DNA of 64,000 nt from Gammaproteobacteria bacterium (GCA_965208655.1 CBDBPJ010000003.1:449324-513323); one strand, 5' to 3'; shown: positions 1,213 through 50,722, counted from the stretch's first letter. Translations and numbers: made by a program. Notes: generated from the sequence alone by a model not told the origin.

Positions 1213-1765
1213 TGGGAGTCCTTCATTTGCGCTGCAGGGAGATGATGAGCGGTCACGGCTGTCGCAGACAGAGAGGCTGCGGCTGGAGGCGGTCAACGGT
1301 ATCCGCAAGCTGCGCCTGCAGGTGCGGCCACGTTCCGGGGCGGACAAAAGCCGGCTTGAAAGACTGCTGGGAACGGTCCTGCCGGGAGGGCCGGAGGAGA
1401 AAGTAAACAACGATGCTGCCGCGTATTGGCTGGCGCCCAATGACTGGTTGCTGGTTAATCCTGCAGCCGATACAGACAGCATTAAAGTTGCGTTACGGGA
1501 TGCATCCGGTGACGCCACGTCTGTCGTCACCGAAGTGACCGATAGCTGGAGTATCATCGACCTATCCGGTGAGGATGCCCCGGCAAGACTAGCGCAAGGG
1601 TGTTCGGTCGACCTCCATTACAGCGTATTCCCCGCCGGCCGCTATGCATTGACCCGGCTGCAGCACCTGTCCGTCATTATCCACCGTCTGGATGATATCC
1701 CGCGCTTCCGTGTGCTGGTTGACCGCAGTGTGGCGCAATATCTACGGGACTGGCTGGTAGGGTGA
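1205..1765 (+). CDS. soxG: Sarcosine oxidase gamma subunit (candidate)
   Basis: An in-frame ATG at 1205 overlaps the soxA stop (ATGTTTGA). Size and position after soxA fit soxG. The longer listed ORF from 1133 would run inside soxA. Confidence 0.55.
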   Translation: MFDGSPSFALQGDDERSRLSQTERLRLEAVNGIRKLRLQVRPRSGADKSRLERLLGTVLPGGPEEKVNNDAAAYWLAPNDWLLVNPAADTDSIKVALRDASGDATSVVTEVTDSWSIIDLSGEDAPARLAQGCSVDLHYSVFPAGRYALTRLQHLSVIIHRLDDIPRFRVLVDRSVAQYLRDWLVG

Positions 1766-3057
1766 CCCGGATTAGTAGTGGCGAGGCGCCGGCTGGCGGT
1801 GCTATCACCTTGTCACATTACCTGCTGCTTGGTCTTTTGACCCTGCTCAATGTCCTCAATATCGTTGACCGCCAACTGTTAAGCAGTTTTGCAAATTTTA
1901 TCGTACCGGACCTGGGTCTGACCAATACCCAGTTTGGCTTACTTACCGGGTTGATGTTCATGGTGTTTTACTCCTTCATGGCCTTGATCATGGGTGCGCT
2001 TGCCGATATCTACCACCGGCCGCGACTGATCGCCGCGGCGGTCTTTCTCTGGAGCGTGTGTACGGCGGCTTCCGGCGCGGCGCGGGGTTTCATCAGCCTT
2101 GCCATTCCCAGGATGCTGATTGGCGTCGGGGAATCCACCCTGTCACCGGCCGCGATCGCCATGCTGGCAGACAAGTTTCCTGCCGTTAAACGGGGTTTCG
2201 CATCCGGGTTTTACTATATAGGCGTCTCGGTGGGCTTTGGCGCCAGCCTGCTGGTCGCCGGGTACCTGGGGCCGGCCATCGGTTGGCGCAATTGCTTTTA
2301 TCTCCTCGGCGGTATCGGTATCGCGCTGTCCATCGTGATGCTGTTTGTTGCCGATATACCGCGACGGCGCTCAGCAGCTACGGTTGTTGAACAAAGACGT
2401 AACGTGAAAGGCAAGATCATCGAGTTAACCGTCGCACTACGGAAATCCCCTGCGCTTTGCCTGACCATCATCGGCGGCATGTGTGTACACTTCATGTTCG
2501 GCGCAACGGCCTTTGACCAGCTGTGGTACGTACAGGAAAGGGGCTATGACCGGGCACTCATAGCACAGTACACCGGCTGGTCTGGTGTGACGGGCGGCGT
2601 GCTTGGCAACCTGGTTGGCGGCATTGGCAGCGATTACTGGCAGAAGACCACAGGGAAAAGCCGGCTTGCATTCCTGTTCTGGGTATTGCTGCTGCTTGCG
2701 CCCATAAATATCTATTACCGCATTGCCGATCCCGGCTCATTTTTCTTCTGGCTGGGGGTTTTCTTTACGTTCTTTCAACTGGGGTTATTGTACGGTCCGG
2801 CTTACGCCACCCTGCAGGAACTGGCGCCGCCGCATATCTGTTCCACTGCCGTCGCGTTCAATATCCTGATGGCCAGCGTGGTCGGTGTCGGCATGTCTGT
2901 CACGGCAAGCGGTATTTTCATCGATTATTTAATCGCTGCCGGTGTTGCTTCTCCCTATACCGTCTCCCTGCTGCTGTTCACTGTATTGTCGTTCAGCTCA
3001 GTTCCGGCGTTTTATTTTGCTGTCAGGTATATGCCGGAAGAGGGCAAGCGGGTTTAG
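1762..3057 (+). CDS. MFS transporter
   Basis: 431 aa, about 12 hydrophobic segments, MFS-type loop motif (DIYHRPRLIAAAV). The GTG start overlaps the upstream stop (GTGA). Confidence 0.8.
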   Translation: MTRISSGEAPAGGAITLSHYLLLGLLTLLNVLNIVDRQLLSSFANFIVPDLGLTNTQFGLLTGLMFMVFYSFMALIMGALADIYHRPRLIAAAVFLWSVCTAASGAARGFISLAIPRMLIGVGESTLSPAAIAMLADKFPAVKRGFASGFYYIGVSVGFGASLLVAGYLGPAIGWRNCFYLLGGIGIALSIVMLFVADIPRRRSAATVVEQRRNVKGKIIELTVALRKSPALCLTIIGGMCVHFMFGATAFDQLWYVQERGYDRALIAQYTGWSGVTGGVLGNLVGGIGSDYWQKTTGKSRLAFLFWVLLLLAPINIYYRIADPGSFFFWLGVFFTFFQLGLLYGPAYATLQELAPPHICSTAVAFNILMASVVGVGMSVTASGIFIDYLIAAGVASPYTVSLLLFTVLSFSSVPAFYFAVRYMPEEGKRV

Positions 3058-3094
3058 CCCGGATTTCTCACCAGGCCGTTGGTAGCATACGGAA

Positions 3095-3955
3095 TTAATC
3101 CTGCCCTGCAGGTCCGGCAATGGTAGTGCGGTGCATGTGGCGAATATACGCCGGATCGTACCAACTGGCCGAATGGATGACGCAGGCGTTGTCCCACATT
3201 ATCAGGTCATTCGCCTGCCACTCATGGACATAAACAAAGCGTTCGCTGGTCGAGTGTGTAAAGAGTTCACTGAGCAGGTCCGTTGATTCGTCCTCCGGGA
3301 ATCCCTCAATGCGTACGGTGAAGCCTTCATTGACATAGAGTGCAGGGCGGCCCGTTACCGGGTGGGGGCGGACCACGGGGTGCGATACCGGGGGGATTTT
3401 TTTACGGTCTCCGTCCTGCAACTCCGCCCGATCCATGCCGCGCTGTGCATCCTTCTGCCAGCGCTGTTCATAGCTGTGCAGCGCGCGCAAATCCCTGATG
3501 CGTGTTTTCATGGCATCATCCAGCGCATCGTACGCACAATACATGCCCGCATAAGGCGTATTTCCGCCAGCTTCCGGTGGTGGCACTTCATGGGCATAAA
3601 GCAGTGAACCGAGACTGGGGTTTTGCAGGTAGGACAGGTCCGAGTGCCAGTAGCGTCCCGCATCTTCGATACCCAGGCGCCTGCCCCCGGCCACCTTGTT
3701 GGACAGGACAACGATCTCAGGATGCCCTTCCAGCAGGTATTGGCGGGCTATATGTATCTCCAGTTCGCCAAACCGCCTGCTGAAGTCAATATGCTGTTGT
3801 TCCGTCAGGTGTTGATTACGGAACAGGAGAACGCCGCGCTCGTGAAAGGTTCTTTTTATTTCCCTGAAGGTGGCATTATCGATTTTATCGGCGAGGTCGA
3901 TACCCGAGACTTCTGTTCCTACCGCCTCGCTCAGTGCATTGAAAGTTATGCCCAT
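3095..3955 (-). CDS. TauD/TfdA-family Fe(II)/2-oxoglutarate-dependent dioxygenase
   Basis: 286 aa. The N-terminus (GTEVSGIDL...ERGVLLFRNQHLTEQQHIDFSRRFGE) and the WHSDLSY His/Asp iron motif are typical of taurine dioxygenase-like enzymes. Confidence 0.85.
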   Translation of the reverse strand: MGITFNALSEAVGTEVSGIDLADKIDNATFREIKRTFHERGVLLFRNQHLTEQQHIDFSRRFGELEIHIARQYLLEGHPEIVVLSNKVAGGRRLGIEDAGRYWHSDLSYLQNPSLGSLLYAHEVPPPEAGGNTPYAGMYCAYDALDDAMKTRIRDLRALHSYEQRWQKDAQRGMDRAELQDGDRKKIPPVSHPVVRPHPVTGRPALYVNEGFTVRIEGFPEDESTDLLSELFTHSTSERFVYVHEWQANDLIMWDNACVIHSASWYDPAYIRHMHRTTIAGPAGQD

Positions 3956-4002
3956 GCCGGGTTACTTTGCCGAATTGAGGTTGAATATGCCAACAATTCT
4001 TT

Positions 4003-5022
4003 TCAGTTCCTCAGCAATGGCATGACCTCAGTCCCGAACCGTTGCAGTTCCTCCAGCGTGGGGTGAAACTGCAGCAGGAATGTCTCGATACCCAGCGACT
4101 CAAACTGCCGCAAGCGTTCGGCAATCATTTCCGGTGTGCCTACCAGCCCTGCCATCGTGCCGCCGTTGGTGCCCACTTTTTCCTGGTCATGGGGCTGTAC
4201 CTGGTGCATTACCACTTCCTTGTCTGCGCCCTTGATTTGCATGTGGCGTAATGCCAGCAGGCGCCGGAATTCCTCGTTTGCGGCGGCCTCCGTTTCCCGG
4301 CAGATGACAAACCCGCCCATACCAAAGCGAATCGTACGGCCGTGTTTTTGCGCCCGCTCCTTCATGTTGGTCACGAGTTCCGGAAATTGTTCCGGCGGCC
4401 TGCCGTTCATGACAAAAATATCGGCGGCCCGCGCACCCAGGGCTCGGCCCTGTTCCGATTCGCCACCGATATAGATTGGGATGTGGGGCTGTTGCACCGA
4501 GCGCGGGGCGATAGAGGCGTCCTTTATCCGGTAGTACTCGCCGTCGAAACTGAAATTGTTACGGGTCCACAGTCCCCTGAGGATATCGATGTATTCAGCG
4601 GCGCGGGCGTAACGATCATCGTGCGCCAGCACCGGCACGCCAAGCATCTCGTATTCGGGCGGCCACCAGGCAGACACCAGGTTTATCGCGAAGCGTCCCC
4701 GGCTGATGTGGTCAATACTGTTCGCCATTTTTGCGATAACACCGGGCGCCCGCAGACCAGGTTTTACCGCCGCGATGATTTCGATTTTTGATGTCAGTGC
4801 AGCCAGCCCGGCCGCGCTGGTCCAGGCATCGACCATATCAAGCGTCGCGCCATTGGGGTGTATGAAGTGCTCGGCAATCAACAGGGTGTCAAATCCAAGC
4901 TGTTCTGCCAGCAGGGTCGACTCCTTCACGTACTCGTAGGAGGCCACACCGTGATCAGGCGAATCGGTCATGATCCAGTTGCCATAAACCGGTGGCCAGA
5001 AACCAAGTCGCATTGCGCCCAT
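4003..5022 (-). CDS. LLM-class (luciferase-like) flavin-dependent monooxygenase, RutA/SfnG-like
   Basis: 339 aa. RFAINLVSAWWPPEYEMLGV and the overall pattern resemble the RutA/SfnG subgroup of bacterial luciferase-like monooxygenases. Confidence 0.75.
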   Translation of the reverse strand: MGAMRLGFWPPVYGNWIMTDSPDHGVASYEYVKESTLLAEQLGFDTLLIAEHFIHPNGATLDMVDAWTSAAGLAALTSKIEIIAAVKPGLRAPGVIAKMANSIDHISRGRFAINLVSAWWPPEYEMLGVPVLAHDDRYARAAEYIDILRGLWTRNNFSFDGEYYRIKDASIAPRSVQQPHIPIYIGGESEQGRALGARAADIFVMNGRPPEQFPELVTNMKERAQKHGRTIRFGMGGFVICRETEAAANEEFRRLLALRHMQIKGADKEVVMHQVQPHDQEKVGTNGGTMAGLVGTPEMIAERLRQFESLGIETFLLQFHPTLEELQRFGTEVMPLLRN

Positions 5023-5185: not shown

Positions 5186-7453
5186 ATGAGGGGGAATCAT
5201 GTCCCTGTATTGAAAGATCTGGTGCTGGTAGGCGGCGGGCATGCCCACGTCACAGTGTTGAAAAAGCTGGGCATGAAACCCATGCCCGGCGTACGCGTGA
5301 CGTTGATATGCCGGGACCTGCAGGCGCCTTATTCCGGCATGCTGCCGGGGTTTATTGCCGGGCACTATACGTTTGACGAAGCGCATATCGACCTGGTTCC
5401 CTTATGCCGGTTTGCCGGCGCCCGGTTTTTCCACGATGAAGTGGTTGGTCTGGATACGGAAAATAAAAGACTGATCTGCCGTGATCGGCCGGACCTGGGT
5501 TACGACGTGCTGTCAATTAACGTCGGCTCAGCCCCTGATATCTCTGCCGTCCCCGGCGCTGCTGCCAATGTAACGCCGGTCAAGCCCATCGATGGTTTTG
5601 TTGACAACTGGCGCAGGCTGTGTGAGCGGATATTGACGCACCGGGGTGGTGTGCGGATCGGCATCGTCGGCGCGGGAGCGGGCGGCGTTGAGTTGACGCT
5701 TGCCGTGCAGTACCGGCTGAAACAGCTATTGGCCGGGAAATGGCCGGACGACGCCGACCCTGAATTTCACCTGTTTACCGATGCCGCTGAGGTCCTGGTC
5801 ACACATAACCGCTTCGTGCGCGCCAAATTTCGACGCGTTCTTGCGGAACGGGATATCAACGTCCATACGGGACACCAGGTGGTTGAAGTCCGGCCCGACG
5901 CGCTGCAATGTGCCAACGGCGCAACCTTTGACCTGGATGAGATCCTGTGGGTGACCATGGCCCGCGCCCAGGCATGGCCGGCAAAAGCCGGTCTTGATGT
6001 CGACGAACAGGGCTTTATCAAGGTCAATGACACGCTTGAGTCCGTTTCACATCCCGGCATCTTCGCGGCCGGCGATATCGCCCACGTGGTGAACCATCCG
6101 CGACCCAAATCCGGCGTCTTCGCCGTGCGCCAGGGGCCGCCCCTGTCATTGAACATCCGGCGCAAACTGCTGGGACGTCCTCTTGTACCCTTTTCCCCGC
6201 AGAAAGAGTTCCTCAGCCTGATCTCCACTGGAGACAAATATGCTGTCGCATCACGCTCCTGGTGGGCGCTGGAGGGACGCTGGGTATGGACCTGGAAAGA
6301 CTGGATCGACCGACGTTTCATGCGCAAGTTCAACCAGCTTCCCGACATGAAGGAAGAAGTGCGCCAGGAAATTCCCCGCGGCCTGGTCGACAAGGATGCG
6401 ATCAGGGAGATATCCGCCATTGCCATGCGTTGTGGCGGCTGCGGTTCAAAGGTGGGCGCCACGGTGCTTGAAAACGCACTGGCAGGACTTGAACCGGTAT
6501 CCCGGGATGACGTGCTTATCGGCCTGCACGAACCAGATGACGCTGCCGTGGCTAGGGTTCCTGACGGTAAGGTCATGGTGCATACGGTGGATTCTTTCCG
6601 GTCGTTTATCGATGATCCCTACCTGTTCGGGCAAGTTGCGGTAAATCATGCGCTGAGTGATCTATACGCGATGGGTGCGGAACCGCAAACGGCACTGGCT
6701 ATCGTGACCGTTCCCTACGCGGATGAAAAGAAGGTCGAGGAACTGCTTGCGCAAATGCTGCAGGGCGCTCTCAAGGTGTTGAACGAGTCAGGCACCGCGC
6801 TGGTCGGCGGGCATACCAGCGAAGGCGAGGAGTTGTCCCTGGGTTTTTCCGTGAACGGTTTGATAGATCGTGACAAAATCCTGCATAAAAGCGGCCTGCG
6901 CGCAGGCGATCGAATCCTGTTGACCAAGCCCGTCGGTACCGGGACCCTGTTTGCGGCCGATATGCGTCACAAGGCAAAAGGGCCGTGGATTACTGCCGCC
7001 CTTGACAGCATGCTGCAATCGAACCATGAAGCAGCGGGGTGCCTGTTCGCGCACGGGGCGACTGCATGCACGGACGTCACCGGCTTCGGCCTGCTGGGCC
7101 ACCTGGTGGAAATGATCAAGCCATCCCGCGTTGATGTCGATATTGACCTCGGCGCCATTCCCTATCTGGATGGCGCCGAGGAGACGGTTGCAGCCGGCAT
7201 ATTCAGTTCGTTACAACCCCAGAACCTGCGTTTGCGCCGGGCCATCCAGGATGTTGAAATTGCATCAAGGGATCTGCGCTACCCGTTGATATTCGATCCG
7301 CAAACTTCAGGCGGACTGCTTGCCGGTGTCCCGGAACAGCAGGCCGATGCCTGTGTCCGGGAATTGCTCAAGCTGGGCTACACCCGCACGGCAATCATCG
7401 GCAAGGTGTTACCTGAGAGTGATCGCCTGGAACCGGTTAGACTGCTGTTTTGA
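5186..7453 (+). CDS. selD: Fusion protein: FAD/NAD(P)-binding pyridine nucleotide-disulfide oxidoreductase domain + selenide,water dikinase (selenophosphate synthetase; SenC-equivalent)
   Basis: 755 aa. N-terminal Rossmann motifs (LVLVGGGHAH, IGIVGAGAGGVE, AAGDIA). From about residue 410 a SelD module begins with the Cys-containing glycine-rich loop RCGGCGSKVG and continues with AIR-synthase-like PurM-fold motifs (DDAAV, GGHT). Confidence 0.85.
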   Translation: MRGNHVPVLKDLVLVGGGHAHVTVLKKLGMKPMPGVRVTLICRDLQAPYSGMLPGFIAGHYTFDEAHIDLVPLCRFAGARFFHDEVVGLDTENKRLICRDRPDLGYDVLSINVGSAPDISAVPGAAANVTPVKPIDGFVDNWRRLCERILTHRGGVRIGIVGAGAGGVELTLAVQYRLKQLLAGKWPDDADPEFHLFTDAAEVLVTHNRFVRAKFRRVLAERDINVHTGHQVVEVRPDALQCANGATFDLDEILWVTMARAQAWPAKAGLDVDEQGFIKVNDTLESVSHPGIFAAGDIAHVVNHPRPKSGVFAVRQGPPLSLNIRRKLLGRPLVPFSPQKEFLSLISTGDKYAVASRSWWALEGRWVWTWKDWIDRRFMRKFNQLPDMKEEVRQEIPRGLVDKDAIREISAIAMRCGGCGSKVGATVLENALAGLEPVSRDDVLIGLHEPDDAAVARVPDGKVMVHTVDSFRSFIDDPYLFGQVAVNHALSDLYAMGAEPQTALAIVTVPYADEKKVEELLAQMLQGALKVLNESGTALVGGHTSEGEELSLGFSVNGLIDRDKILHKSGLRAGDRILLTKPVGTGTLFAADMRHKAKGPWITAALDSMLQSNHEAAGCLFAHGATACTDVTGFGLLGHLVEMIKPSRVDVDIDLGAIPYLDGAEETVAAGIFSSLQPQNLRLRRAIQDVEIASRDLRYPLIFDPQTSGGLLAGVPEQQADACVRELLKLGYTRTAIIGKVLPESDRLEPVRLLF

Positions 7454-7523
7454 CGTGCGAAAAGCACAGTCTAAGCGTGGGAAATCACGTTTATTGTAAA
7501 ATAAAGTCCCTATTATCCGCAAC

Positions 7524-8492
7524 TTAAGTCGAATCTAACTGGTCCGACCCTACTAACAGGGCCTGCCAACGCCTGCCCTCCAGTTCCGGGGCAAACAGGT
7601 GTTTGCGTTTGTTGCCATACTCGTGCAGGCGTTGCAGGAAGCTTTGATCGGTTTCCGCCCGCTGTAACAGGGTGCATAATCCCCCGGTGTTCTCTACCGG
7701 GTAATAACCGGGGTAATCTTCGCCGAGCAGGCCGACGTTGCCGTCTATATCGGAGGCAATGACGGGAACGCCCGCGACCATGGCTTCGGAAACGACATTG
7801 GCGCCGCCTTCCATGATCGAGCTGTGTACCAGCGCATGGGTCTTCAGGAATTCTTGTCTTACCTGCCATGCGCCGACTTCGCCGCGCCAGTGATAGCGGG
7901 GATTTGCCGCCATCTCGGCGCGTGCCTGCCCGGCCCATTCATCATTATGGGCCTTGCCGAGATGGACTACCCGCAAACGGGACTGTTCAGGCATGCCCCG
8001 GGCAGCGTAGGCCGTCCTGAACGGGTCTTTTTCCTCGCGTAAGTGGCCGACGACACAGACATCGAAGGTGCGTGTTGACGGTTTGCGGGCGCGTTTCAGC
8101 GGCTCTGCCGATTGGTGGATTACACGCAGTTTTTCCCGGTATGGTTCCGGAATTGCGCGATGCACCAGGTCGTGCAGGCATACCAGCGCGTCAGCCATCT
8201 CCATGGATTGCAGGGTTTCCTCCGGATGGCTGTGCTGGAAGCGGTAGATATCCGTGCCGGTCAGGGCTACCACCAGGGGGCGGCCGGGGAAGCGCCCGCG
8301 AAATTGTTCTATTGATGAAGCGCTGCGCCACGCATGCAATGCTACCATCATATCGCCCGGCGTCCCGTCCCAGTCGGATTGAACGGTTACACTGTGGCCG
8401 ATACCCCGCAACAGGCGCTCCCAGCGGTTCGCGGTCACGCGATTTCCCGTCTTCGATTGTTTTTTTGCGGGGGTAATCAGGATGATCTTCAT
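7524..8492 (-). CDS. senB: GT1-type glycosyltransferase, candidate selenosugar synthase SenB
   Basis: 322 aa. The N-terminus MKIILITPA..KTGNRVTANRW and a C-terminal GT-B fold (SIMEGGANVVSEA) are as recalled for the SelD/EgtB-linked glycosyltransferase family. It sits between selD and the EgtB-like gene. Confidence 0.6.
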   Translation of the reverse strand: MKIILITPAKKQSKTGNRVTANRWERLLRGIGHSVTVQSDWDGTPGDMMVALHAWRSASSIEQFRGRFPGRPLVVALTGTDIYRFQHSHPEETLQSMEMADALVCLHDLVHRAIPEPYREKLRVIHQSAEPLKRARKPSTRTFDVCVVGHLREEKDPFRTAYAARGMPEQSRLRVVHLGKAHNDEWAGQARAEMAANPRYHWRGEVGAWQVRQEFLKTHALVHSSIMEGGANVVSEAMVAGVPVIASDIDGNVGLLGEDYPGYYPVENTGGLCTLLQRAETDQSFLQRLHEYGNKRKHLFAPELEGRRWQALLVGSDQLDST

Positions 8493-8546
8493 ACTCTTAC
8501 TTTAAGCTACAATACTCATGATGCAACCTCCAGGCAGAACAGGGCA

Positions 8547-8570
8547 GGGGACAGATTTAAATCTGTCCCC
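8547..8570. promoter_or_regulatory. 24-bp perfect palindrome GGGGACAGATTTAAATCTGTCCCC in the divergent senB/senA intergenic region (candidate operator)
   Basis: Read directly; the sequence equals its own reverse complement. It is located in the 110-bp gap between divergent start codons at 8492 and 8603. Confidence 0.4.
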
Positions 8571-8602
8571 GTTTGCTCTCCACACTTTAAGCGACTGAAG
8601 CC

Positions 8603-9919
8603 ATGATGCAACAGGTAAGCAGCAATTATTTGAAGGAAATCATGACGGATGCCCATAACAGGACCCTGGAACTGGTGGCCGGCCTGGATGAAGAGCAATT
8701 GATTGGGCCGAAGCTACCTATAGTCAATCCGTTACGCTGGGAGATCGGGCACGTGGCCTGGTTTCATGAGAAGTTTATCCTGCGCGACCTGTACGGCCGC
8801 CCCCCACTGTTGGCAAACGGTGATGCCATCTATGATTCCATCGCCATCCATCATGAACAGCGCTGGGACCTGCCGCTGTTGAGTATGCAGGAGACGCTGG
8901 ATTACATCGGGAACGTCCTCGATGACTGCCTGTCGTTGCTGCCGGACGGTAGCGCGGACCCGGCACAGAGTTATATATACCGGTTTTCCACCTACCATGA
9001 AGACATGCATACCGAGGCTTATTGCTGGTCGCGCCAGACCTTGGCCTATCCGAAGCCTTCGTTTGCAAATGCGCTGAGACCGGAAGATGCGGATGCCGGG
9101 GCCTGGCCCGGGGATGCGGTTGTCCCGGGACGGGTTTTTTTCCCTGGAGCCGGCAAAGAAACACCGTTTGTCTTCGATAACGAAAAATGGGCGCATGAAG
9201 TCACCGTGGAACCGTTTCACATCGCAAAAGCGCCGGTCACCAATGCCGGGTTCATGGATTTCGTCAATGCGGGGGGGTATCGATACCGGGAGTTCTGGAG
9301 TGATGAAGGCTGGGCCTGGCGGGAGCAGGCAAACGCCGGGCATCCGGTGTACTGGATTGCCGGAGACCGGGGTGAATGGCGGCTGAGGCGGTTTAACGAG
9401 ACAGGGGCTATGCCGCTTCATCAACCTGTCATTCATGTGAACTGGTACGAAGCCGAAGCGTATTGCCGCTGGGCAGGCAGGCGCTTGCCGACGGAAACGG
9501 AGTGGGAAGCCGCCGCACTGGGCGAATCCGGGCAGGACAACAGCGGGCTTGCTTCGGAAAAACGGAGTTACCCGTGGGGAGAACAGCCGCCGGATAGCCG
9601 GCAGGCAAATCTCGATGGCCGTGCGCTGGGATGTATCGATGTGGCCGCCCTGCCTGAAGGAGACAGCGCGTTTGGCTGCCGGCAGATGATCGGCAACGTA
9701 TGGGAATGGACATCAAGTACGTTTGCCCCGTTTCCCGGGTTTTCTCCGGATGCCTACAAGGAATATTCCGAACCGCTGTTTTATGACACCAGGGTATTGA
9801 AAGGTGGTACCTGGGCAACCCGAAGCCGCATGATCACGGGCCGGTACCGTAATTTTTTCACCCCGGACCGGCGCGACGTGCTGGCAGGTTTCAGGACCTG
9901 CGCGCTAACTTCAAGTTAG
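8603..9919 (+). CDS. senA: EgtB-like protein (DinB-like N-domain + FGE-sulfatase C-domain), candidate selenoneine synthase SenA
   Basis: 438 aa. The DinB-type N-terminus (NPLRWEIGHVAWFHE, HEDMHTE) and the FGE-sulfatase motifs (VNWYEAEAYCRWAGRRLPTE, GNVWEWT, RVLKGG) match EgtB/OvoA-type C-S/C-Se bond-forming enzymes. Confidence 0.65.
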   Translation: MMQQVSSNYLKEIMTDAHNRTLELVAGLDEEQLIGPKLPIVNPLRWEIGHVAWFHEKFILRDLYGRPPLLANGDAIYDSIAIHHEQRWDLPLLSMQETLDYIGNVLDDCLSLLPDGSADPAQSYIYRFSTYHEDMHTEAYCWSRQTLAYPKPSFANALRPEDADAGAWPGDAVVPGRVFFPGAGKETPFVFDNEKWAHEVTVEPFHIAKAPVTNAGFMDFVNAGGYRYREFWSDEGWAWREQANAGHPVYWIAGDRGEWRLRRFNETGAMPLHQPVIHVNWYEAEAYCRWAGRRLPTETEWEAAALGESGQDNSGLASEKRSYPWGEQPPDSRQANLDGRALGCIDVAALPEGDSAFGCRQMIGNVWEWTSSTFAPFPGFSPDAYKEYSEPLFYDTRVLKGGTWATRSRMITGRYRNFFTPDRRDVLAGFRTCALTSS

Positions 9920-10144
9920 TTGCTATACGGCGCGGCCCTTACGATGATCTTGAATACTATGATGCGGCTTCCGCCAGGAAGAAATAAGTCCCGGTTGCAT
10001 TCACACTGTGGGGCTCTCTATTTGAGGAAAGGAAGTTGTGCCGGATCGGCGATTACATTAAAAACTAATATAATATTAATAAGTTAAGAAAGAAACTGAA
10101 TGTGTAATATTAGATGTCTATCACATTGAGGACTTAATTCGGGA

Positions 10145-11539
10145 ATGAACAGTGACAAACAGCATCTGAGAAGCCTGCCGTCGGTAGATCGCGTACTGCG
10201 CGAGACGGCCCATCTTGCCGAGCAATGGGGGCATGAGCGTGTGACGGCTGCAATCCGCAATGAGCTTGAACAGATGCGACATAACCCGGAAGCGTTAAAC
10301 ACTGCCGGCAAGACATCATTATTAAGCCATGTCGTGGCTGCCGTTGAAACTGAACTGGAAAATGCCGCGCAGAGCAGTCTGGTTAGCGTATTCAACCTGA
10401 CCGGTACGGTATTGCATACCAACCTTGGCCGCGCATCACTCCCCGAGGAGGCATTGCAAGCGGTGCAGGCCGCGGCGCGCTCGCCCTCCAACCTGGAATA
10501 CGATTTGGGGACCGGAATGCGCGGTGATCGCGATAGTCACGTGGAACGGCTGCTGTGTCAGCTCTGTGATGTGGAAGCGGCAACGGTGGTGAACAACAAT
10601 GCCGCCGCGGTACTGCTGGTATTGAATACTCTGGCAAAGGAGTCGGAGGTTCCTGTCTCCCGAGGTGAACTGGTCGAGATAGGCGGTTCATTTCGCATCC
10701 CGGAGATCATGCAGAGTTCAGGGTGCGTCCTGGTCGAGGTCGGTACGACCAACCGTACCCACCTGAAGGATTATAAAAATGCCGTAAACGACAAAACCGC
10801 GTTGTTGCTCAAGGTGCATGCGAGCAATTATCAGATCCAGGGCTTCACAAGCAGCGTTACCGAAACGGAACTGGCGCAACTGGCCCATGAGTTCGGATTA
10901 CCTTTTATCGTCGATTTGGGCAGCGGTAACCTGGTCGACTTTCCCGCGTTCAACCTGCCCGATGAACCCACCGTGGCGCACACGGTGAAGAACGGCGCGG
11001 ATATTGTCACGTTCAGTGGCGACAAGCTGCTGGGCGGTCCCCAGTGCGGCATCATCGCCGGTAAACGGGAATTGATAACCAGGATCAAGAAGAACCCCAT
11101 GAAGCGGGCCCTGCGCGTCGACAAGATGACACTGGCTGCCCTGTTGGAAGTATTCAGGCTCTATCAGGACCCGTCCCGGTTGGCGGAAAAACTGCCGACC
11201 CTTGCATTCCTGACCCGGCCGGCAGCCGAGATACGCACCCAGGCCGAACGGCTTGCTCCCAGGGTAGCAGAAGCGTTGGCACCCCGTTATGAAGTCGCGG
11301 TAAGCGAATGTCACAGCCAGGTAGGCAGCGGCGCACTGCCGGTTGATACGCTACCCAGCTATGGTTTAAGGATCAGTGCTGCGGATGAGTCGGATGAAGC
11401 GATCAGGCAACTGGCCGAGTCCATGCGCCGGCTGGCTGTACCGGTCATCGGCCGCATCAACAAGGGTGCCTATTTCCTGGATCTGCGTTGCCTGGATAGG
11501 GAGGAAGAATTTGATGCCCAGCTTGAGCAGTGGAAATAA
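10145..11539 (+). CDS. selA: L-seryl-tRNA(Sec) selenium transferase
   Basis: 464 aa. N-terminal LPSVDRVL motif, NLEYDL..G.RG.R, the PLP-lysine region FSGDKLLGGPQ.G, and KVDK at the C-terminal domain are classic SelA features. Confidence 0.9.
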   Translation: MNSDKQHLRSLPSVDRVLRETAHLAEQWGHERVTAAIRNELEQMRHNPEALNTAGKTSLLSHVVAAVETELENAAQSSLVSVFNLTGTVLHTNLGRASLPEEALQAVQAAARSPSNLEYDLGTGMRGDRDSHVERLLCQLCDVEAATVVNNNAAAVLLVLNTLAKESEVPVSRGELVEIGGSFRIPEIMQSSGCVLVEVGTTNRTHLKDYKNAVNDKTALLLKVHASNYQIQGFTSSVTETELAQLAHEFGLPFIVDLGSGNLVDFPAFNLPDEPTVAHTVKNGADIVTFSGDKLLGGPQCGIIAGKRELITRIKKNPMKRALRVDKMTLAALLEVFRLYQDPSRLAEKLPTLAFLTRPAAEIRTQAERLAPRVAEALAPRYEVAVSECHSQVGSGALPVDTLPSYGLRISAADESDEAIRQLAESMRRLAVPVIGRINKGAYFLDLRCLDREEEFDAQLEQWK

Positions 11540-11571
11540 CGTCTTTCTTATCCGACCTGTACTTGACCCGC

Positions 11572-12633
11572 CTAGGCACATATTTCATTGGTAGTAAGAT
11601 TTTTCAACAAGTTATCGTTATCAACAGCCCCTTCGATTTCACGCAGCCACCTGCGGTACTGGATGGATACCATATCGGTCGGGACGGATATCTCGTTAAT
11701 GTCGAAGGGGATTTGTGGCGGGTTCTGTGCTTCGATCACCACAATATCTTCTTCCAGTACACGTTCCTGAAATGCCAGATGAGGATAATCGGGCTCATCC
11801 TTATTGTGATCACGGCAGGTAAACCAGAAACTGCGGCAATGACCCTCGTCAAGGGGTGATGCACTCATCCATAAGATGGCTCGATTGCCTTTCCCGGCTT
11901 TGCTGATGAGTTCAAATTCCAGGTTGACAGTAAACGGCATGGTAATCTGGTAATTCGTTTTTCCCATTAAAGACACATCAGGGATGGGCATATCATCGGT
12001 CTGGGGATTGAAATGAAAAACCAATTGACCGTTATTACGTTCGATTGACGGGGGTGATACTTCCGTCATGTTCGGATCAAACAGTGTGTTTGGATGTACG
12101 TAAGGAAAATGGGCTAAATCCACAAAATTCTCCAGGCGCCTGGCTGCGGAAGTTGGCCAGGTATAGGGTTTGCCGATAACTGCCTTGAACGCGTCATCAT
12201 CAAATCCGGGACAGGGAGGGATTTCTGTCTCTGCATCGGTTTCAAGACGAACCCATACGAGGTCGTATTTTACTTCAGCAGCATATTTTTGAATTTTTGC
12301 ACGACCCGGTATTCTTAAATCACGGCACGCAGGAATGTCGACACATTTTCCGGTACTGTCATAAGCCCAGCCATGATAACGGCAGCGTATTCTCCCATCA
12401 TCTATGAAGCCCCTGGACAAGGATGTTGAACGGTGCGCGCACCGATCGGCGAAAACGGAAATACTCCCGTCCAGTTTTGCTATAACCAGGGCCTCACCCA
12501 GCAACTGCACCTGGAGCGGACCATTACCGGAGGGGTCTGCCGAATACAATTCCTCCAAAGTACAGACAGGATGCCAAAAGTGACGCCAGGTCTCTTCTTT
12601 GATAAACCGGCCCTTATTTTTCTCTATGGTCAT
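11572..12633 (-). CDS. Rieske [2Fe-2S] aromatic oxygenase/O-demethylase alpha subunit (phthalate/VanA-type family)
   Basis: 353 aa. Rieske motif CAHRSTSLSRG...CRYHGW and a C-terminal mononuclear-iron domain (DLAHFPYVH). Confidence 0.8.
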   Translation of the reverse strand: MTIEKNKGRFIKEETWRHFWHPVCTLEELYSADPSGNGPLQVQLLGEALVIAKLDGSISVFADRCAHRSTSLSRGFIDDGRIRCRYHGWAYDSTGKCVDIPACRDLRIPGRAKIQKYAAEVKYDLVWVRLETDAETEIPPCPGFDDDAFKAVIGKPYTWPTSAARRLENFVDLAHFPYVHPNTLFDPNMTEVSPPSIERNNGQLVFHFNPQTDDMPIPDVSLMGKTNYQITMPFTVNLEFELISKAGKGNRAILWMSASPLDEGHCRSFWFTCRDHNKDEPDYPHLAFQERVLEEDIVVIEAQNPPQIPFDINEISVPTDMVSIQYRRWLREIEGAVDNDNLLKNLTTNEICA

Positions 12634-12654
12634 GTAATTCCCCCGTATGCGGGG

Positions 12655-13512
12655 TCAGGTCGCATTGATTGTCAGCGTATCCTCCAGAACGGTCAATCCC
12701 ATCCCTGATAACATCGGCAGGTAGTAATTCCGGTGGATCTTGTTGACCTTCGGGGTTAATGCGCCGCGCATCCCGAGCCACACCATCATCTCCACCGCTT
12801 CGGCGCCACCTCGTTCCATCCATTCATCATGAGGGATATCGACCAGGCTTTCCGGATCGTCTTCGATCCGGTCAAGAAATTCCTGGTCCCAGTCCGAGTT
12901 CATATGGCCGAAACGATCCCCGTGCAACTGGTGAGAAAGTCCACCGGTGCCCACAACAACTACACGCACGTCATCGGGATAGGACTCTACGGCTGTGCGC
13001 AGTGCCTGTCCAAGTTTCCATAACCGGTGCGGTGTCGGTAACGGATGCTGCAGCACATTGACCTGGAAGGGCACAGTCCTGACGCTCCAGTCAGGTTCAT
13101 GATCGAACAATAACGGCAACGGCACCAGGATGCCGTGATCCATCACCATATCCTGGCAGATGGTGAGATCGAATTCACTCTCTACCACCAGGGAGTTAGC
13201 CAGGTGCCAGGAAAATTCGGCATCACCCTTTACCGCGGGCAGCGGACGCGCCCCCCAGCCTTCATCACCGATAGGGTACTCGTCGGCAACACCCAGCGCG
13301 AACGTCGGGTACTTGTCAAAAAAGAAATCGGTGCCATGGTCGTTGTACAGAACGATGGCGTGAGTTATCCCGACGTCCTTCAACCAGGCTTTTGCAGGCT
13401 TATAACCATCAAACAGGGGCTTCCACCCCGGCGCCTCCTGCTGGTTTTGATCGAAAGCCACGCCAACCGAAGGAACGTGGGACGAACCGATACCGGCAAC
13501 TAGTCTACCCAT
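12655..13512 (-). CDS. ligB: Protocatechuate 4,5-dioxygenase beta subunit (class III extradiol dioxygenase)
   Basis: 285 aa. GIGSSHVP, LYNDHG and GTGGLSHQL motifs of LigB-type dioxygenases; immediately downstream of a LigA-like gene. Confidence 0.8.
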   Translation of the reverse strand: MGRLVAGIGSSHVPSVGVAFDQNQQEAPGWKPLFDGYKPAKAWLKDVGITHAIVLYNDHGTDFFFDKYPTFALGVADEYPIGDEGWGARPLPAVKGDAEFSWHLANSLVVESEFDLTICQDMVMDHGILVPLPLLFDHEPDWSVRTVPFQVNVLQHPLPTPHRLWKLGQALRTAVESYPDDVRVVVVGTGGLSHQLHGDRFGHMNSDWDQEFLDRIEDDPESLVDIPHDEWMERGGAEAVEMMVWLGMRGALTPKVNKIHRNYYLPMLSGMGLTVLEDTLTINAT

Positions 13513-13537
13513 TTTATTGCTCCACTGTGTTTTGCTG

Positions 13538-13906
13538 TTACATATTTTGCCGCAACGGCACGTTGCGGGTCTTCATGAATTCTTCCACCGATTCGCCACG
13601 CTGCTGTGCACCGATGGGGACCAGGCCATCACCGGTCATGGCGCCGACTTTCAACAGCATATAGATGTTGCCGCCGCCTTCTTCAATCAGTGCCTTCCAG
13701 TCCTTCTCCTTAACCTTTTGTTGCTCCCAGGCGGAAAGACCGTAGCTGTTCATATAGGCTTCCGGATCTTTACGATAAGCCTCCCGGTTTTCGGCTTTGT
13801 GAAGAGAAAAGGCAAAACTGTTCAGTTTCAGCCCTTTCTGCGACCTTTGCCCGGTGAACACGCATGTGCCCGGGATATGATCACTGTGACCCGTTTCTCT
13901 ACTCAT
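13538..13906 (-). CDS. ligA: Protocatechuate 4,5-dioxygenase alpha subunit
   Basis: 122 aa. LigA-like sequence (NSYGLSAWEQQKVKEKDW, GGNIYMLLK) directly upstream of ligB. Confidence 0.75.
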   Translation of the reverse strand: MSRETGHSDHIPGTCVFTGQRSQKGLKLNSFAFSLHKAENREAYRKDPEAYMNSYGLSAWEQQKVKEKDWKALIEEGGGNIYMLLKVGAMTGDGLVPIGAQQRGESVEEFMKTRNVPLRQNM

Positions 13907-14012
13907 AATTCTCTACCTGGTTCGTGAAAAGTTGAAGGGACGCGGACCCCGTCAGACTGTGCAGTATGCGCATATCGGCACAGGTGATCAATGTCAGGGA
14001 AGGGGTTGGCAT

Positions 14013-15197
14013 TCAGAGCTCCGGCCAGTAATCGAACGGTAGCCCTGTATGTTGCCTGGCATAGGATATCTGGGAGGTCTCGTCAGACACCAGGTATTCC
14101 AGTTCCGCCACTTGCATACGGCGTTCGAAGGGGTTGCTGTCGGGGTGGATATGATACTTGGCCGTGTTACCCGAAGAAAAACGCTGGCACTGGAGGTTAC
14201 GCGCCAGGGCGACGTCGGCATAGCGGTCTAAAATGGTAGCATCGTCCTTTGTAAAGTATTCGATCAGCGCGGCGGACAGGACACTCACATCGGCAAAGGC
14301 CGCGTTAAGGCCCTTGGCGCCCGTCGGCGGGACGATGTGCGAGGCGTCACCGCACAGAAACAAACGGCCATGGGACATGGGTTGGGAGAAGAAACTCCGC
14401 AGCGGGGTCACATCTTTCTGGAAGATCTCCCCTCGCTCAAGCTCCCAGCCGGGGGCGCCCAGGCGCGTGTCGAGTTCTTCCCAGATCCGCTCATCGGGCC
14501 ATTCGTTGATATCTTCATCCGGCGCGCACTGGAGATAGAGCCGCGATACTTTCGGTGAACGCATGCTCAACAGGGCAAAGCCGCGTTCATGATGGCAAAA
14601 CATCGCGACATCCTTCGACGGAGGCGCTTTGGCCATCACGCCGAGCCAGCCGTAGGGATAAACATTCTCGTACGTCTTGAGGACGCCGGCCGGGATCGAA
14701 TGGCGCGAAGGACCATGAAAACCATCGGCGCCGATAACGAATTCACAGCTTATTTCCTTGTCCACGCCCTCGTGAGTGTACTTCACCGTCGGGGAATCGC
14801 CCTCAATACCCTCGATTGCCGTGGCGGGCGCCTCATAGAAAACCTTGTGATCTTCCGCGGCAAGCGCGCCCAGCAGGTCCTTGGTAAGCTCTGACTGGCC
14901 GTATATGGTGACGCCAACCCCTATCAGCTTATCGAAATCGAGAAAGTGATGCTCATTATGCAGGCCGATGACCACACCCGGATGATACATGCATTCCTTT
15001 TTCAGGCGTTCGCCGACACCTGCCTTGATCATCAGGTCTACCGCGTTTTTCTCCATGACACCGGCACGAATGCGACTTTCGACGTATTCACGGCTTTTCC
15101 TTTCCAGGACGACACTTTCGATCCCGCGCTGACGTAAAATCCAGGCCAGGAGCGAACCTGCCGGACCGGCGCCCACTATCACGACTGGTACATGCAT
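14013..15197 (-). CDS. pobA: 4-hydroxybenzoate 3-monooxygenase
   Basis: 394 aa. VVIVGAGPAGSLLA FAD motif and GDASHIVPPTGAKGLN; it aligns along its whole length with my recollection of PobA. Confidence 0.9.
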   Translation of the reverse strand: MHVPVVIVGAGPAGSLLAWILRQRGIESVVLERKSREYVESRIRAGVMEKNAVDLMIKAGVGERLKKECMYHPGVVIGLHNEHHFLDFDKLIGVGVTIYGQSELTKDLLGALAAEDHKVFYEAPATAIEGIEGDSPTVKYTHEGVDKEISCEFVIGADGFHGPSRHSIPAGVLKTYENVYPYGWLGVMAKAPPSKDVAMFCHHERGFALLSMRSPKVSRLYLQCAPDEDINEWPDERIWEELDTRLGAPGWELERGEIFQKDVTPLRSFFSQPMSHGRLFLCGDASHIVPPTGAKGLNAAFADVSVLSAALIEYFTKDDATILDRYADVALARNLQCQRFSSGNTAKYHIHPDSNPFERRMQVAELEYLVSDETSQISYARQHTGLPFDYWPEL

Positions 15198-16231
15198 TGT
15201 CTTGTCTCCTGGTCCGAATTTGTTTTGTTTAAGCGGGCAAATACCCTGCGGGCATTGCCCTCAAAGATGGCCGTTTTTTCATCTTTGCCCAATGTATTAT
15301 TATTATCGATGTAACGTTTGGTGTCGTCGAAATAATGGCCGGTTTCGGGGTCTATGCCGCGTACTGCGCCTATCATTTCTGATGCAAACAAAATATTCCT
15401 GGTTGGAATCACGTCCACCAGCAAATCAATCCCGGGCTGGTGATAAACACAGGTGTCAAAATAGACATTGTTCAACAATAATTCATTGAGCGGAGGCAGT
15501 TTCATCATGTCGGCCAGGCCGCGGAAACGTCCCCAGTGATAGGGTACCGCACCGCCGCCATGGGGGATGATGAACCTGACGTCCGGAAAGTCCCGGCACA
15601 CAGTCGATGTCATCAACTGCATAAAGGCCGTAGTGTCGGCGCTCAGGTAATAGGAACCGGTGGTCTGAAAGGCATGATTACAGGCCCCGCTCACATGGAT
15701 CATGGCAGGAACATCCAGTTCGCACATTTTTTCGTATATCGGATACCAGTAGCGATCTCCCAGGGGAGGGGAGTCCCAGTGGCCGCCGGATGGATCCGGG
15801 TTCAGGTTAAACCCGACAAAGCCGAACTCAAGTACACAACGCTCCAGTTCCAGAACGGCATTACGTAGTCCTGCCCCTAGTGTCTGGGGCAACTGGCATC
15901 CTCCGGCGAAGTTATCCGGGTATAACTGCGTGATGCGATAGATTAACTCGTTACAGTGCTCAGACCAGAATTTACTGGTGCTCTCATTGCCGACATGATG
16001 CCCCATCCAGCTGGCGCGCGGCGAGAATATGGTGAGATCGATACCCCGAGTCCGTTGCAGTTCTAACTGTGCTCCTTCAAGGCTTTCCCGCAACTGGTCA
16101 TCGCTGATATCGATGACGCCTTTCTCATGTTGAAAGTGTGCGTCTTCGGCCAGTTCCGCTTTTTGTTGCTCGCGGTATTCGCCCAGCGCAGCCGGCGCCG
16201 TGGTGTAGTGGCCGTGACAATCAATAACCAT
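15179..16231 (-). CDS. ligJ: Amidohydrolase-2 family, 4-oxalomesaconate hydratase-like
   Basis: 350 aa. The N-terminus MVIDCHGHYTTAP..EYREQQKA resembles LigJ; the gene lies within the lig-type cluster. Confidence 0.65.
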   Translation of the reverse strand: MVIDCHGHYTTAPAALGEYREQQKAELAEDAHFQHEKGVIDISDDQLRESLEGAQLELQRTRGIDLTIFSPRASWMGHHVGNESTSKFWSEHCNELIYRITQLYPDNFAGGCQLPQTLGAGLRNAVLELERCVLEFGFVGFNLNPDPSGGHWDSPPLGDRYWYPIYEKMCELDVPAMIHVSGACNHAFQTTGSYYLSADTTAFMQLMTSTVCRDFPDVRFIIPHGGGAVPYHWGRFRGLADMMKLPPLNELLLNNVYFDTCVYHQPGIDLLVDVIPTRNILFASEMIGAVRGIDPETGHYFDDTKRYIDNNNTLGKDEKTAIFEGNARRVFARLNKTNSDQETRQCMYQS

Positions 16232-16233
16232 GA

Positions 16234-16962
16234 TCAGTCGTTTAAATCGTCCGGTGAATCCAGGTAAACCAGGCCTGCTTTTTCCAGTCGCGGGCGCATG
16301 TCGTATATATCCAGGCCTAAAATACCGTTTGCCAGTTGTTTACGTTTCTCCGCCTCGTTTTGTTCCCGGGTCCGGGCTGCGGCCAAAGCAGATTCGGCTT
16401 GGTGTCTCGGAATCACTACCACGCCGTCATCATCCGCAACCACTACATCACCTGGATTGACGGGCTGGCCGGCACAGACGATGGGTACGTTTACCGAACC
16501 AGGCGTGTTTTTAACCGTGCCCCTGGCTGACACCGCTTTGGACCAAACGGGGAAACTCATATCCTCCAGTGTTGCCACGTCGCGTACGCCGGCATCTATC
16601 ACAAGGCCTTTTACACCTCGGGCCTGGGCCGAAGTGGCCAATAAATCACCAAACATGCCGTCGGTATTGTCCGTGGTGCAAGCTGCCACGAGGACGTCTC
16701 CAGGCCGGCAAAGTTCTATAGCCACATGCAACATCCAGTTGTCGCCAGGCTGGGCCAGAATCGTTATGGCACTGCCTGCCATCCGGGCGCGCCGGTATAT
16801 GGGCCGCATATAGGGTTTTAACAAACCCGTCCGTCCCAGTGCTTCATGTATTGTGGCGACGCCCAGGCTATCCAGTGCTTCCACGACCGCGGCATCTGCC
16901 CGTTCAATGTTTCGAACTGCTACCGTTCTCATCAGCTTACTTTCCTCATCTGGCGGGAACAT
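16234..16962 (-). CDS. ligK: RraA-family 4-carboxy-4-hydroxy-2-oxoadipate aldolase/oxaloacetate decarboxylase
   Basis: 242 aa. RraA-fold motifs ([25 protein letters not shown]-like) within the meta-cleavage cluster. Confidence 0.8.
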
Positions 16963-18019: not shown

Positions 18020-18182
18020 GTTCGCGCTTCTGGTTTGTGTAATAACAGCGTATTTCCAATCCGTTCAGCCAACCAATGGGAATTAATTACCCAACCATGC
18101 GAAAAAGTAATCCGGCCATCCTCACCATGCCCCCGGTTCATCCGGGGACCAAAGCAACATGCCTGTTTCCCGTCCTGAATAA

Positions 18183-19484: not shown

Positions 19485-19505
19485 CCCCGTCACTCCCCAA
19501 TATCA

Positions 19506-20390
<885 letters not shown>

Positions 20391-20394
<4 letters not shown>

Positions 20395-34282: not shown

Positions 34283-34438
34283 ATTGGAATAATTCAGCAG
34301 AATAATTTGTATAAATTCTTCCATGCGTAGAAGGTGCGATATTGCGATTTCATGTAATATGGCTTCAAATGAGTCATCATCGTAAAGAGCACAAATTCAG
34401 GGAAAAATTGGACTTATTGTTGTTTAAATACAGTTGAG

Positions 34439-35647: not shown

Positions 35648-35652
35648 TTACA

Positions 35653-47834: not shown

Positions 47835-47852
47835 GTCGATCAAAATCAAAGA

Positions 47853-50717: not shown

Positions 50718-50722
50718 ATACG

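Follow-up and report, generated by a model that had tools for sequence, protein, structure and literature searches.

The genes at positions 5186–9919 of the 64-kb window, by which we mean the whole stretch of DNA analyzed here, very probably form a genuine gene cluster for selenoneine (sen) biosynthesis, from a gammaproteobacterium that has not been cultured. Judged from its sequence, the cluster is an ordinary instance of the known three-gene bacterial selenoneine pathway, in a version with a fused SelD that is common. The first gene, senC (5186–7453, plus strand), encodes a flavoprotein domain and SelD in a single open reading frame of 755 aa. It is followed on the opposite strand by senB (7524–8492, minus strand, 322 aa), the predicted selenosugar synthase, a Se-glycosyltransferase with a GT-B fold. 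The third gene, senA (8603–9919, plus strand, 438 aa), encodes the predicted selenoneine synthase, a non-haem iron selenoxide synthase with a DinB and FGE-sulfatase fold. Beyond it lies selA (10145–11539, plus strand), for L-seryl-tRNA(Sec) selenium transferase. The open reading frame map agrees with all the coordinates and strands of the original prediction and with the arrangement it described, senC convergent with senB and senB divergent from senA. The two divergent genes are 110 bp apart, and senC lies on the far side of senB. Pfam assigns Pyr_redox_2, AIRS and AIRS_C to SenC, Glycos_transf_1 to SenB, DinB_2 and FGE-sulfatase to SenA, and SelA to SelA. All three sen products pass curated NCBIfam cut-offs, which confirms the proposed set of a SelD, a SenB and a SenA-type enzyme.

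A SenA protein search returned no identical protein; the nearest species representative (L001) stands at 87% identity and the nearest protein cluster (P0001) at 89%, and relatives at 62–66% identity are named “selenoneine synthase SenA” by NCBI. Across the 80 nearest genomic loci, SenB adjoins the SenA homologue in 67, and the complete layout, with senC and senA reading forward on either side of a reversed senB, is present in 22. On the strength of its genes, the cluster would extend the known production of selenoneine, which is a potent selenium antioxidant, to a further uncultured lineage of gammaproteobacteria. Automated models already pick out sen clusters of this kind.

The product of senA is predicted to be a selenoneine synthase. 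It scores 485.1 bits with the SenA model NF041186 (cut-off 420) and 321 bits with the EgtB model TIGR03440, under the cut-off of 360; SenB also clears its curated cut-off, so that the profile comparison recommended in the original prediction came out in favor of both sen assignments. The composite active-site motif formed by H50, H84, R87, H132, H136, Y385, Y388, N417, F418 and F419 reads HHRHHYYNFF, identical to that of the crystallised and assayed SenA of V. paradoxus, while the same positions read HHRHHYMQAY in OvsA and HRRHHYYNWD in EgtB. Within this motif, the three-His iron triad (H50, H132 and H136) and the catalytic Y385 align with V. paradoxus SenA, OvsA and EgtB. The thiol-binding Arg87 and Asp416 of EgtB are replaced by His84 and Phe419, and replacement by His and Phe/Tyr has been reported for all SenA (bioRxiv 10.1101/2022.04.13.486033; PMC11237966). 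The hercynine-binding residues Y388, N417 and F418 are present, where OvsA has Met, Gln and Ala; the roles of these hercynine- and histidine-binding residues in SenA and OvsA come from bioRxiv 10.1101/2024.04.10.588772. In a neighbor-joining tree, the SenA clade of the source, which is linked to senB, is separate from OvsA, V. paradoxus SenA and EgtB, although a tree with one reference per family cannot alone assign function. By model score and by His84/Phe419, the EgtB-like protein does not behave as a sulfur-specific EgtB. Because the protein is 43% identical to V. paradoxus SenA and its phmmer score is higher for OvsA (299–309 bits) than for V. paradoxus SenA (224 bits), we base the functional call on the residues of the active site and on the gene neighborhood, and not on closeness of homology.

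A selenoneine pathway requires hercynine, and its source bears on the strongest of the alternatives. As originally claimed, the window holds no EgtD-type methyltransferase: Pfam scans of ~50 ORFs in the 64-kb window revealed none, and tblastn of the same window with M. smegmatis EgtD, a query validated against PDB 4uy5, gave a best E-value of 1.7. Since the window is without egtD, an EgtD that supplies hercynine would have to be encoded elsewhere in the genome. In the four closest relatives, too, the gene is absent from the 10 kb around the locus (21-kb loci), and the slot after senA, often held by egtD in more distant relatives, is occupied here by selA. A genome scan for EgtD (query L005 EgtD), built on six exact 8-residue patterns only, matched 138 relatives, the four closest genomes not among them. 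These observations would fit a lineage that carries genuine sen enzymes without hercynine synthesis, making only selenosugars or importing hercynine, with SenC working mainly for SelA and selenocysteine. We consider such a lineage unlikely. A scan limited to six exact peptides cannot show absence, and most sen clusters have no linked egtD and rely for hercynine on an egt pathway encoded at another locus (bioRxiv 10.1101/2022.04.13.486033). Moreover, SenA's motif for binding hercynine is intact, which argues for continued selection. That egtD neighbors the SenA homologue at 33 of the 80 related loci points to hercynine as the substrate of the clade, and we retain selenoneine as the probable product.

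The original prediction made no mention of ovoselenol. The ovs cluster, known through OvsA of Halomonas utahensis (8u41/8u42), also combines a senB/senC selenosugar cassette with an EgtB-like non-haem iron selenoxide synthase. If the enzyme studied here were an OvsA, it would selenylate free histidine at C5, which would account for the absence of egtD from the 64-kb window and the four closest loci. Where EgtB has Arg87 and Asp416, OvsA carries a His and an aromatic residue, as SenA does here, and it gives the top pairwise phmmer score and the top PDB match (299–309 bits, over 224 bits for V. paradoxus SenA). The host is gammaproteobacterial, as in most ovs carriers (bioRxiv 10.1101/2024.04.10.588772), and there was no OvsA-named NCBIfam match, so the SenA model might take in OvsA proteins too. 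We nevertheless regard an ovoselenol cluster as very improbable. The residues that switch OvsA to SenA, M401Y/Q430N/A431F, correspond to Tyr388, Asn417 and Phe418, the SenA state, in place of the histidine-binding Met/Gln/Ala of OvsA; and the top PDB match is actually 8ux5, the OvsA-YNF mutant, an engineered enzyme that produces selenoneine and scores over wild-type OvsA. NCBIfam and Pfam scans of the 64-kb window found neither an OvsM-type nor any other small-molecule methyltransferase, OvsA branches outside the SenA clade of the source, and egtD adjoins the SenA homologue in the 33 of 80 clade members noted above. The OvsA identity was dropped on the Tyr/Asn/Phe motif, the absence of OvsM from the 64 kb and the position in the tree.

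An ordinary sulfur EgtB of ergothioneine synthesis that happens to adjoin selenium genes is more improbable still: the Pfam architecture is identical, the identity to M. thermoresistibile EgtB is 38%, relatives are called “EgtB” in older annotations (P0040), and this type I enzyme (4x8b) is alike in fold, in its three-His facial triad and catalytic Tyr, and in the Tyr/Asn/aromatic set that binds hercynine, but we rejected this identity because the EgtB model cut-off is missed and His and Phe take the place of Arg87 and Asp416, which bind gamma-Glu-Cys, and the gene is moreover paired divergently with senB in a conserved layout and linked to senB and selD instead of egtA/C/D/E, with egtA, egtC and egtE not found in the 64-kb window by NCBIfam and Pfam scans.

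The remaining enzymes of the selenoneine cluster were assigned in the same way. SenB scores 419 bits with TIGR04348 (cut-off 300), and its PDB matches, 8jjn and 8fbx, are structures of SenB from V. paradoxus (E 2e-53). Residues N17, T20, H53, R56, T78, T80, D81, R152, K155, E228 and E236 are all conserved in the alignment and are equivalent to N20, T23, H58, R61, T83, T85, D86, R155, K158, E231 and E239 of the reference enzyme. There, K158 is catalytic, N20, H58, R61, T83, T85 and R155 form the selenophosphate (SeP) pocket, and N20, T23 and E231 determine sugar selectivity (PMC10891094). The EGGAHV motif of SenB appears here as EGGANV. Its family score and retained catalytic residues place the glycosyltransferase inside the SenB family, as had been proposed. 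The accompanying label of “GT1 glycosyltransferase” holds in the sense of the Pfam family Glycos_transf_1 and the GT-B fold, but not in the sense of CAZy family GT1.

SenC joins two domains. The N-terminal one (aa 10–382; 5213–6331, plus strand) is a flavoprotein of the pyridine nucleotide-disulfide oxidoreductase or NDH-2-like type, with two dinucleotide-binding glycine motifs, VGGGHAH and GAGAGG. It scores 505 bits with the Nterm_to_SelD model TIGR03169 (cut-off 310, aa 11–382), and its closest solved structures are the type II NADH dehydrogenases 4nwz and 9pxk (E ~1e-12). No invariant cysteine was found in this domain among 33 fused homologues. The SelD domain (aa 414–755; 6425–7453, plus strand) scores 303 bits with TIGR00476 (cut-off 125, aa 414–719) and aligns end to end with SelD of A. 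aeolicus (2yye) and E. coli (3u0o), with E ~1e-48. The motifs DDAAV, TVD, SDxxAMG and TDVTGFGLLGH are kept, including those for ATP and Mg. Since the score for TIGR04369, the oxidoreductase/SelD-related “fusion_not_SelD” family, is 494.7 bits and under the cut-off of 700, that reading was rejected and SenC was taken as a true SelD fusion.

The active-site loop of the SelD domain, R415-C416-G-G-C419-G-S-K422 (6428–6451, plus strand), retains the catalytic residues, C419 and K422 corresponding to Cys17 and Lys20 of E. coli SelD (3u0o). The additional C416 creates a CxxC motif that is specific to fused SelD. Both cysteines occur without exception in the fused homologues (33/33) and in the fused SelD of beta-proteobacteria (23/23), and the loop RCGGCG[A/S]K occurs in all 56 fused SelD examined. 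Unfused SelD instead has GGGCGCK, in 38/38 cases including V. paradoxus SenC, and in two further unfused SelD near the relatives of the source. On these sequences, the split between fused (CGGCG[A/S]K) and unfused (GGGCGCK) loops is a small new point. The fusion around which the original prediction built the cluster is real; its implied rarity did not hold, as such fusions are frequent in sen clusters (32/80 nearest SenA loci and 23/80 beta-proteobacterial sen loci) and are already in the literature. The accessible text of Zhang 2008 (PMC2432076) and Mariotti 2015 (PMC4561486) describes NADH-oxidoreductase (COG1252)–SelD fusions of the same two-domain build, an N-terminal extension on a Cys-type SelD. 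These sources predict that the fusions keep selenophosphate synthetase activity and that a selenium compound is reduced by the added domain, a reductase role proposed in PMC2432076, and according to PMC4561486 the genomes with such fusions retain selenoprotein machinery. The published fusions are tied there to the selenocysteine and selenouridine traits, whereas here, and in the 32 and 23 loci just counted, the fusion serves as SenC in a selenoneine cluster, and the CxxC loop goes without mention in the same accessible text.

The closest characterized system, the senABC cluster of V. paradoxus DSM 30034 (Kayrouz et al. 2022; SenA 8k5i, SenB 8jjn/8fbx), comprises the same three enzyme families. 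Both systems share the SenA motif, the catalytic Lys and substrate residues of SenB, the catalytic Cys and Lys of SelD and the divergent senA/senB pair. The identity is low, at 43% for SenA, 40% for SenB and 31% for the SelD domain. In V. paradoxus, SenC consists of SelD only, has the loop GGGCGCK and is encoded in the same direction as senB, whereas SenC here has an extra flavoprotein domain of ~400 aa, a CGGCGSK loop and a convergent orientation. SenA here further contains a 56-aa loop (aa 308–363) that is missing in V. paradoxus SenA and present in EgtB and OvsA. The adjacency of selA also distinguishes this locus from the V. paradoxus cluster.

Based on these assignments, we propose that the SelD domain of SenC would convert selenide and ATP into selenophosphate. 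With a UDP-sugar as its second substrate, probably UDP-GlcNAc, SenB would then glycosylate selenophosphate and hydrolyze the Se–P bond to give a 1-seleno-sugar. Using Fe(II) and O2, SenA would join the selenium of this sugar to C2 of hercynine, and the resulting selenoxide would eliminate the sugar to yield selenoneine. The NDH-2-like domain and the CxxC loop would most likely use NAD(P)H to generate selenide from oxidized or bound selenium in the active site of SelD. A tentative and more specific version, which we find possible but hold with less than even confidence, is that the fused SenC acts as a self-sufficient “selenium reductase–selenophosphate synthetase”. In such an enzyme, electrons from NAD(P)H would travel through the FAD domain to selenium bound as an adduct on the CxxC loop (C416/C419), selenide would be released straight into the SelD active site, and this single enzyme would supply both SenB and SelA in the lineage. 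If so, the split between CGGCG[A/S]K and GGGCGCK would be its sequence signature. Many sen clusters employ a flavoprotein-fused SelD with a CxxC loop and not the characterized plain SelD, and for the reduction of selenium and its delivery to SelD the fusion offers a natural candidate that can be tested.

The divergent intergenic region between senB and senA contains a perfect 24-bp palindrome, GGGGACAGATTTAAATCTGTCCCC (8547–8570), present as a single copy in the 64-kb window, where chance would give 0. It could act as an operator or form a hairpin. The palindrome is absent from all 80 related loci, and because it is not conserved in relatives we do not treat it as a defined operator.

SelA is full length and scores 596 bits with TIGR00474 (cut-off 268), and the 225-bp gap originally reported between senA and selA is confirmed at 9920–10144. 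We regard selA as a neighboring consumer of selenophosphate that lies outside the sen pathway proper. It probably draws on the same selenophosphate pool as SenB, for selenocysteine synthesis, and from the 64 kb it is plausible that one SelD serves both the selenoneine and the selenocysteine traits. In searches that included tRNA-Sec, the 64-kb window gave no tRNA or Rfam match and the loci L001–L003 and L006 no tRNA. A scan for promoters and terminators gave no evidence linking selA to the sen genes; sites were no more numerous than in shuffled sequence, so that operon structure could not be inferred. selA lies 3' of senA in L001–L003 and 6.5 kb away in L006, and in none of the other 76 of the 80 loci. 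Among the sequences compared, this restriction of selA–senA proximity to the four closest relatives is a further small new point, and selA beside senA offers a compact locus for asking how the two pathways share selenophosphate.

The genes at window positions 5186–9919 form a selenoneine sen cluster, a reading upheld by curated family models, active-site residues and gene context. The ORF map places senC at 5186–7453 (+ strand, 755 aa), senB at 7524–8492 (− strand, 322 aa) and senA at 8603–9919 (+ strand, 438 aa), followed by selA at 10145–11539 (+ strand, 464 aa). These coordinates and orientations, with senC convergent with senB and senB divergent from senA, agree exactly with the original prediction, and the map likewise bears out the position of selA, 225 bp downstream of senA. 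Each product was scored with curated NCBIfam models against the model's own cut-off. SenA (NF041186, 485 bits against 420) and SenB (TIGR04348, 419 against 300) both exceeded the thresholds for their proposed families, as did SelA (TIGR00474, 596 against 268). Within SenC, residues 11–382 matched TIGR03169 “Nterm_to_SelD” (505 against 310) and residues 414–719 matched TIGR00476 SelD (303 against 125). The model for a fusion that is not SelD, TIGR04369, was rejected for SenC at 495 bits, below its cut-off of 700. Pfam architectures of the cluster's proteins were consistent with these assignments. The cluster is a member of the pathway described in 2022, for which curated models are already available; what remains of value is the fused, CxxC-bearing SenC and the placement of senA next to selA, which is specific to this lineage.

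The window SenB matches the V. paradoxus SenB structures with E = 2e-53. The residues that mutagenesis identified as important in SenB (N20, T23, H58, R61, T83, T85, D86, R155, K158, E231 and E239; PMC10891094) are all kept, as N17, T20, H53, R56, T78, T80, D81, R152, K155, E228 and E236. Together with the model score, this conservation places the glycosyltransferase inside the SenB family.

Among solved structures, the window SenA was matched first by the ovoselenol enzyme OvsA (299–309 bits), second by M. thermoresistibile EgtB (253 bits) and last by V. paradoxus SenA (224 bits, with the match in two pieces). This ranking raised the alternative, absent from the original prediction, that the protein is an ovoselenol enzyme. 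The higher OvsA score is largely due to a 56-residue loop (aa 308–363) that is common to the window SenA, OvsA and EgtB but lost in V. paradoxus SenA. Substrate choice is set by three residues: Met401, Gln430 and Ala431 of OvsA select histidine, their SenA counterparts Tyr, Asn and Phe select hercynine, and the OvsA-YNF triple mutant yields selenoneine (bioRxiv 10.1101/2024.04.10.588772). The window protein carries Tyr388, Asn417 and Phe418 at these positions, where OvsA has Met/Gln/Ala, which argues against an OvsA identity; in the PDB its best single match is 8ux5, the OvsA-YNF mutant, ahead of the wild-type enzyme. An identity as EgtB, the ergothioneine sulfoxide synthase, was rejected, since the EgtB model gave 321 bits, below its cut-off of 360, and the thiol-binding Arg87 and Asp416 of EgtB, replaced in every SenA by His and Phe/Tyr (bioRxiv 10.1101/2022.04.13.486033; PMC11237966), are His84 and Phe419 here.

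NCBIfam scores and active-site residues thus agree that the EgtB-like protein is SenA, as had been proposed, and not a sulfur EgtB. A composite active-site motif of ten positions in a MAFFT alignment reads HHRHHYYNFF in both the window and V. paradoxus SenA, HHRHHYMQAY in OvsA and HRRHHYYNWD in EgtB. The window SenA is a modest 43% identical overall to V. paradoxus SenA, with 41% for OvsA and 38% for EgtB, and in a neighbour-joining tree it lies within a large senB-linked clade, with OvsA and V. paradoxus SenA outside it. The SenA assignment is therefore based on active-site residues and gene context, not on close homology.

As predicted, the window lacks the hercynine synthase EgtD: none appeared in Pfam scans of about 50 ORFs, and a tblastn search of the 64 kb with validated M. 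smegmatis EgtD gave a best E-value of 1.7. Such an absence is normal, since sen clusters usually take their hercynine from an unlinked egt pathway (bioRxiv 10.1101/2022.04.13.486033). No egtD was found within 10 kb in the four closest loci, and their genomes were not among the matches of a pattern-limited genome scan for EgtD.

The N-terminal domain of the fused SenC contains two dinucleotide-binding motifs and has type II NADH dehydrogenases as its closest solved relatives. Over its full length the SelD domain aligns with SelD of E. coli and of A. aeolicus (E about 1e-48); C419 and K422 are equivalent to Cys17 and Lys20, and the Asp-rich ATP/Mg motifs are kept. This “NADH oxidoreductase/dehydrogenase-like-SelD” architecture has been known since 2006–2015, and the extra domain was proposed to reduce a selenium compound for SelD (PMC2432076; PMC4561486). 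Among the SelD genes of the window and of related loci L001–L239, all 56 fused SelD domains examined carry RCGGCG[A/S]K (6428–6451 in the window), in which the catalytic Cys and a second one at −3 make up the CxxC. In contrast, unfused SelD near V. paradoxus-type clusters, V. paradoxus SenC included, reads GGGCGCK in 38 of 38 cases, as do two of the unfused SelDs near relatives of the window. The second cysteine thus lies at +2 from the catalytic one in unfused and at −3 in fused SelD, a split that is a small new observation. No invariant cysteine was found in the flavoprotein domain among the fused homologues compared. These sequence features would be compatible with a model in which FAD reduces a selenium adduct bound at the loop of SelD. 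In five related loci (L013, L014, L051, L052 and L069), the unfused SelD frame beside senB/senA is interrupted by a stop codon a few dozen codons before the aligned SelD start, which could be a candidate in-frame TGA, i.e., a selenocysteine-type SelD.

No GTDB species representative corresponds to the window's genome, and a large protein collection lacks its exact SenA. The closest loci (L001 and L006, 87%; L002, 81%; L003, 79%) come from MAGs built from long reads and labelled Gammaproteobacteria. Among the 80 nearest SenA loci, SenB is adjacent to the SenA homologue in 67, egtD adjoins it in 33, and 22 have exactly the window's arrangement (senC-> <-senB senA->). A complete one-ORF flavoprotein–SelD fusion is present in 32 of the 80, with several more interrupted by contig ends. 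The reference V. paradoxus locus, L160, differs in order (<-senA senB-> senC->), and its SenC, an unfused SelD, shares 31% identity with the SelD domain of the window. Around L160, 23 of 80 beta-proteobacterial sen loci carry the fusion; its recurrence in both sets identifies the fused form as a common SenC type, frequent and not exceptional.

Only the four closest of the 80 nearest loci have selA nearby. Several distant gammaproteobacterial relatives (L043, L053, L063, L067, L070, L072 and others) are arranged senB<- senA-> egtD-> fused senC->, so that the slot directly after senA holds egtD in these and selA in the window's lineage. In L006 (locus 10001–19147), the senA match, in an ORF of 319 aa, ends at about residue 315 and selA lies ~6.5 kb beyond senA, not directly downstream, which suggests that senA was disrupted by an insertion. 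The window's selA reading frame is intact; no tRNA-Sec, selB or selenoprotein genes were detected within the window or close loci. That one SelD feeds both the selenoneine and selenocysteine traits, as originally suggested, is plausible (PMC4561486). The 225-bp senA–selA gap is AT-rich, and a promoter scan was uninformative on co-transcription.

The 110-bp divergent senB–senA spacer contains a perfect 24-bp palindrome, GGGGACAGATTTAAATCTGTCCCC, at 8547–8570, which occurs once in the window and has no counterpart in any related locus; the L001 senB and senA ORFs are separated by just 13 bp. Conservation together with the sen genes was found for none of the surrounding sox, MFS–TauD–monooxygenase, meta-cleavage or defence-island genes. 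Upstream lie sarcosine oxidase genes, as in L001: a soxA fragment (55–1212) and soxG (1133–1765). Between soxG and senC (1762–5022) are genes for an MFS transporter, a dioxygenase of the TauD family and a luciferase-type monooxygenase resembling SfnG, whose 256 bits fall short of the 383-bit cut-off. Together they look like organosulfur-scavenging genes. L001 lacks this trio, and its soxG overlaps the senC start; the trio was therefore apparently inserted in the lineage of the window.

A gene cluster for aromatic meta-cleavage, of the protocatechuate/gallate 4,5-cleavage type, occupies the minus strand downstream of selA (11572–21221), encoding a VanA-like Rieske oxygenase, a LigB-type extradiol dioxygenase, an FAD monooxygenase, amidohydrolases, an RraA-like aldolase and PrpF, with a LysR regulator on the plus strand (18183–19484); a TonB-dependent receptor follows. 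A mobile defence island spans ~27000–60300, with GC down to about 44% at 32–40 kb. It comprises transposases (29027–30217 and 56743–57741), a PDC-S50 candidate (31153–32283), Vsr, Dcm and HATPase genes (33884–37881) with two unknown ORFs after them that reach 39766, a Dcm methylase (44109–45680) followed by a Mza system (MzaB, C, D and E; 46296–53817), an AspBHI-like methyl-directed restriction enzyme (54263–55438) and a tyrosine integrase (59021–60244).
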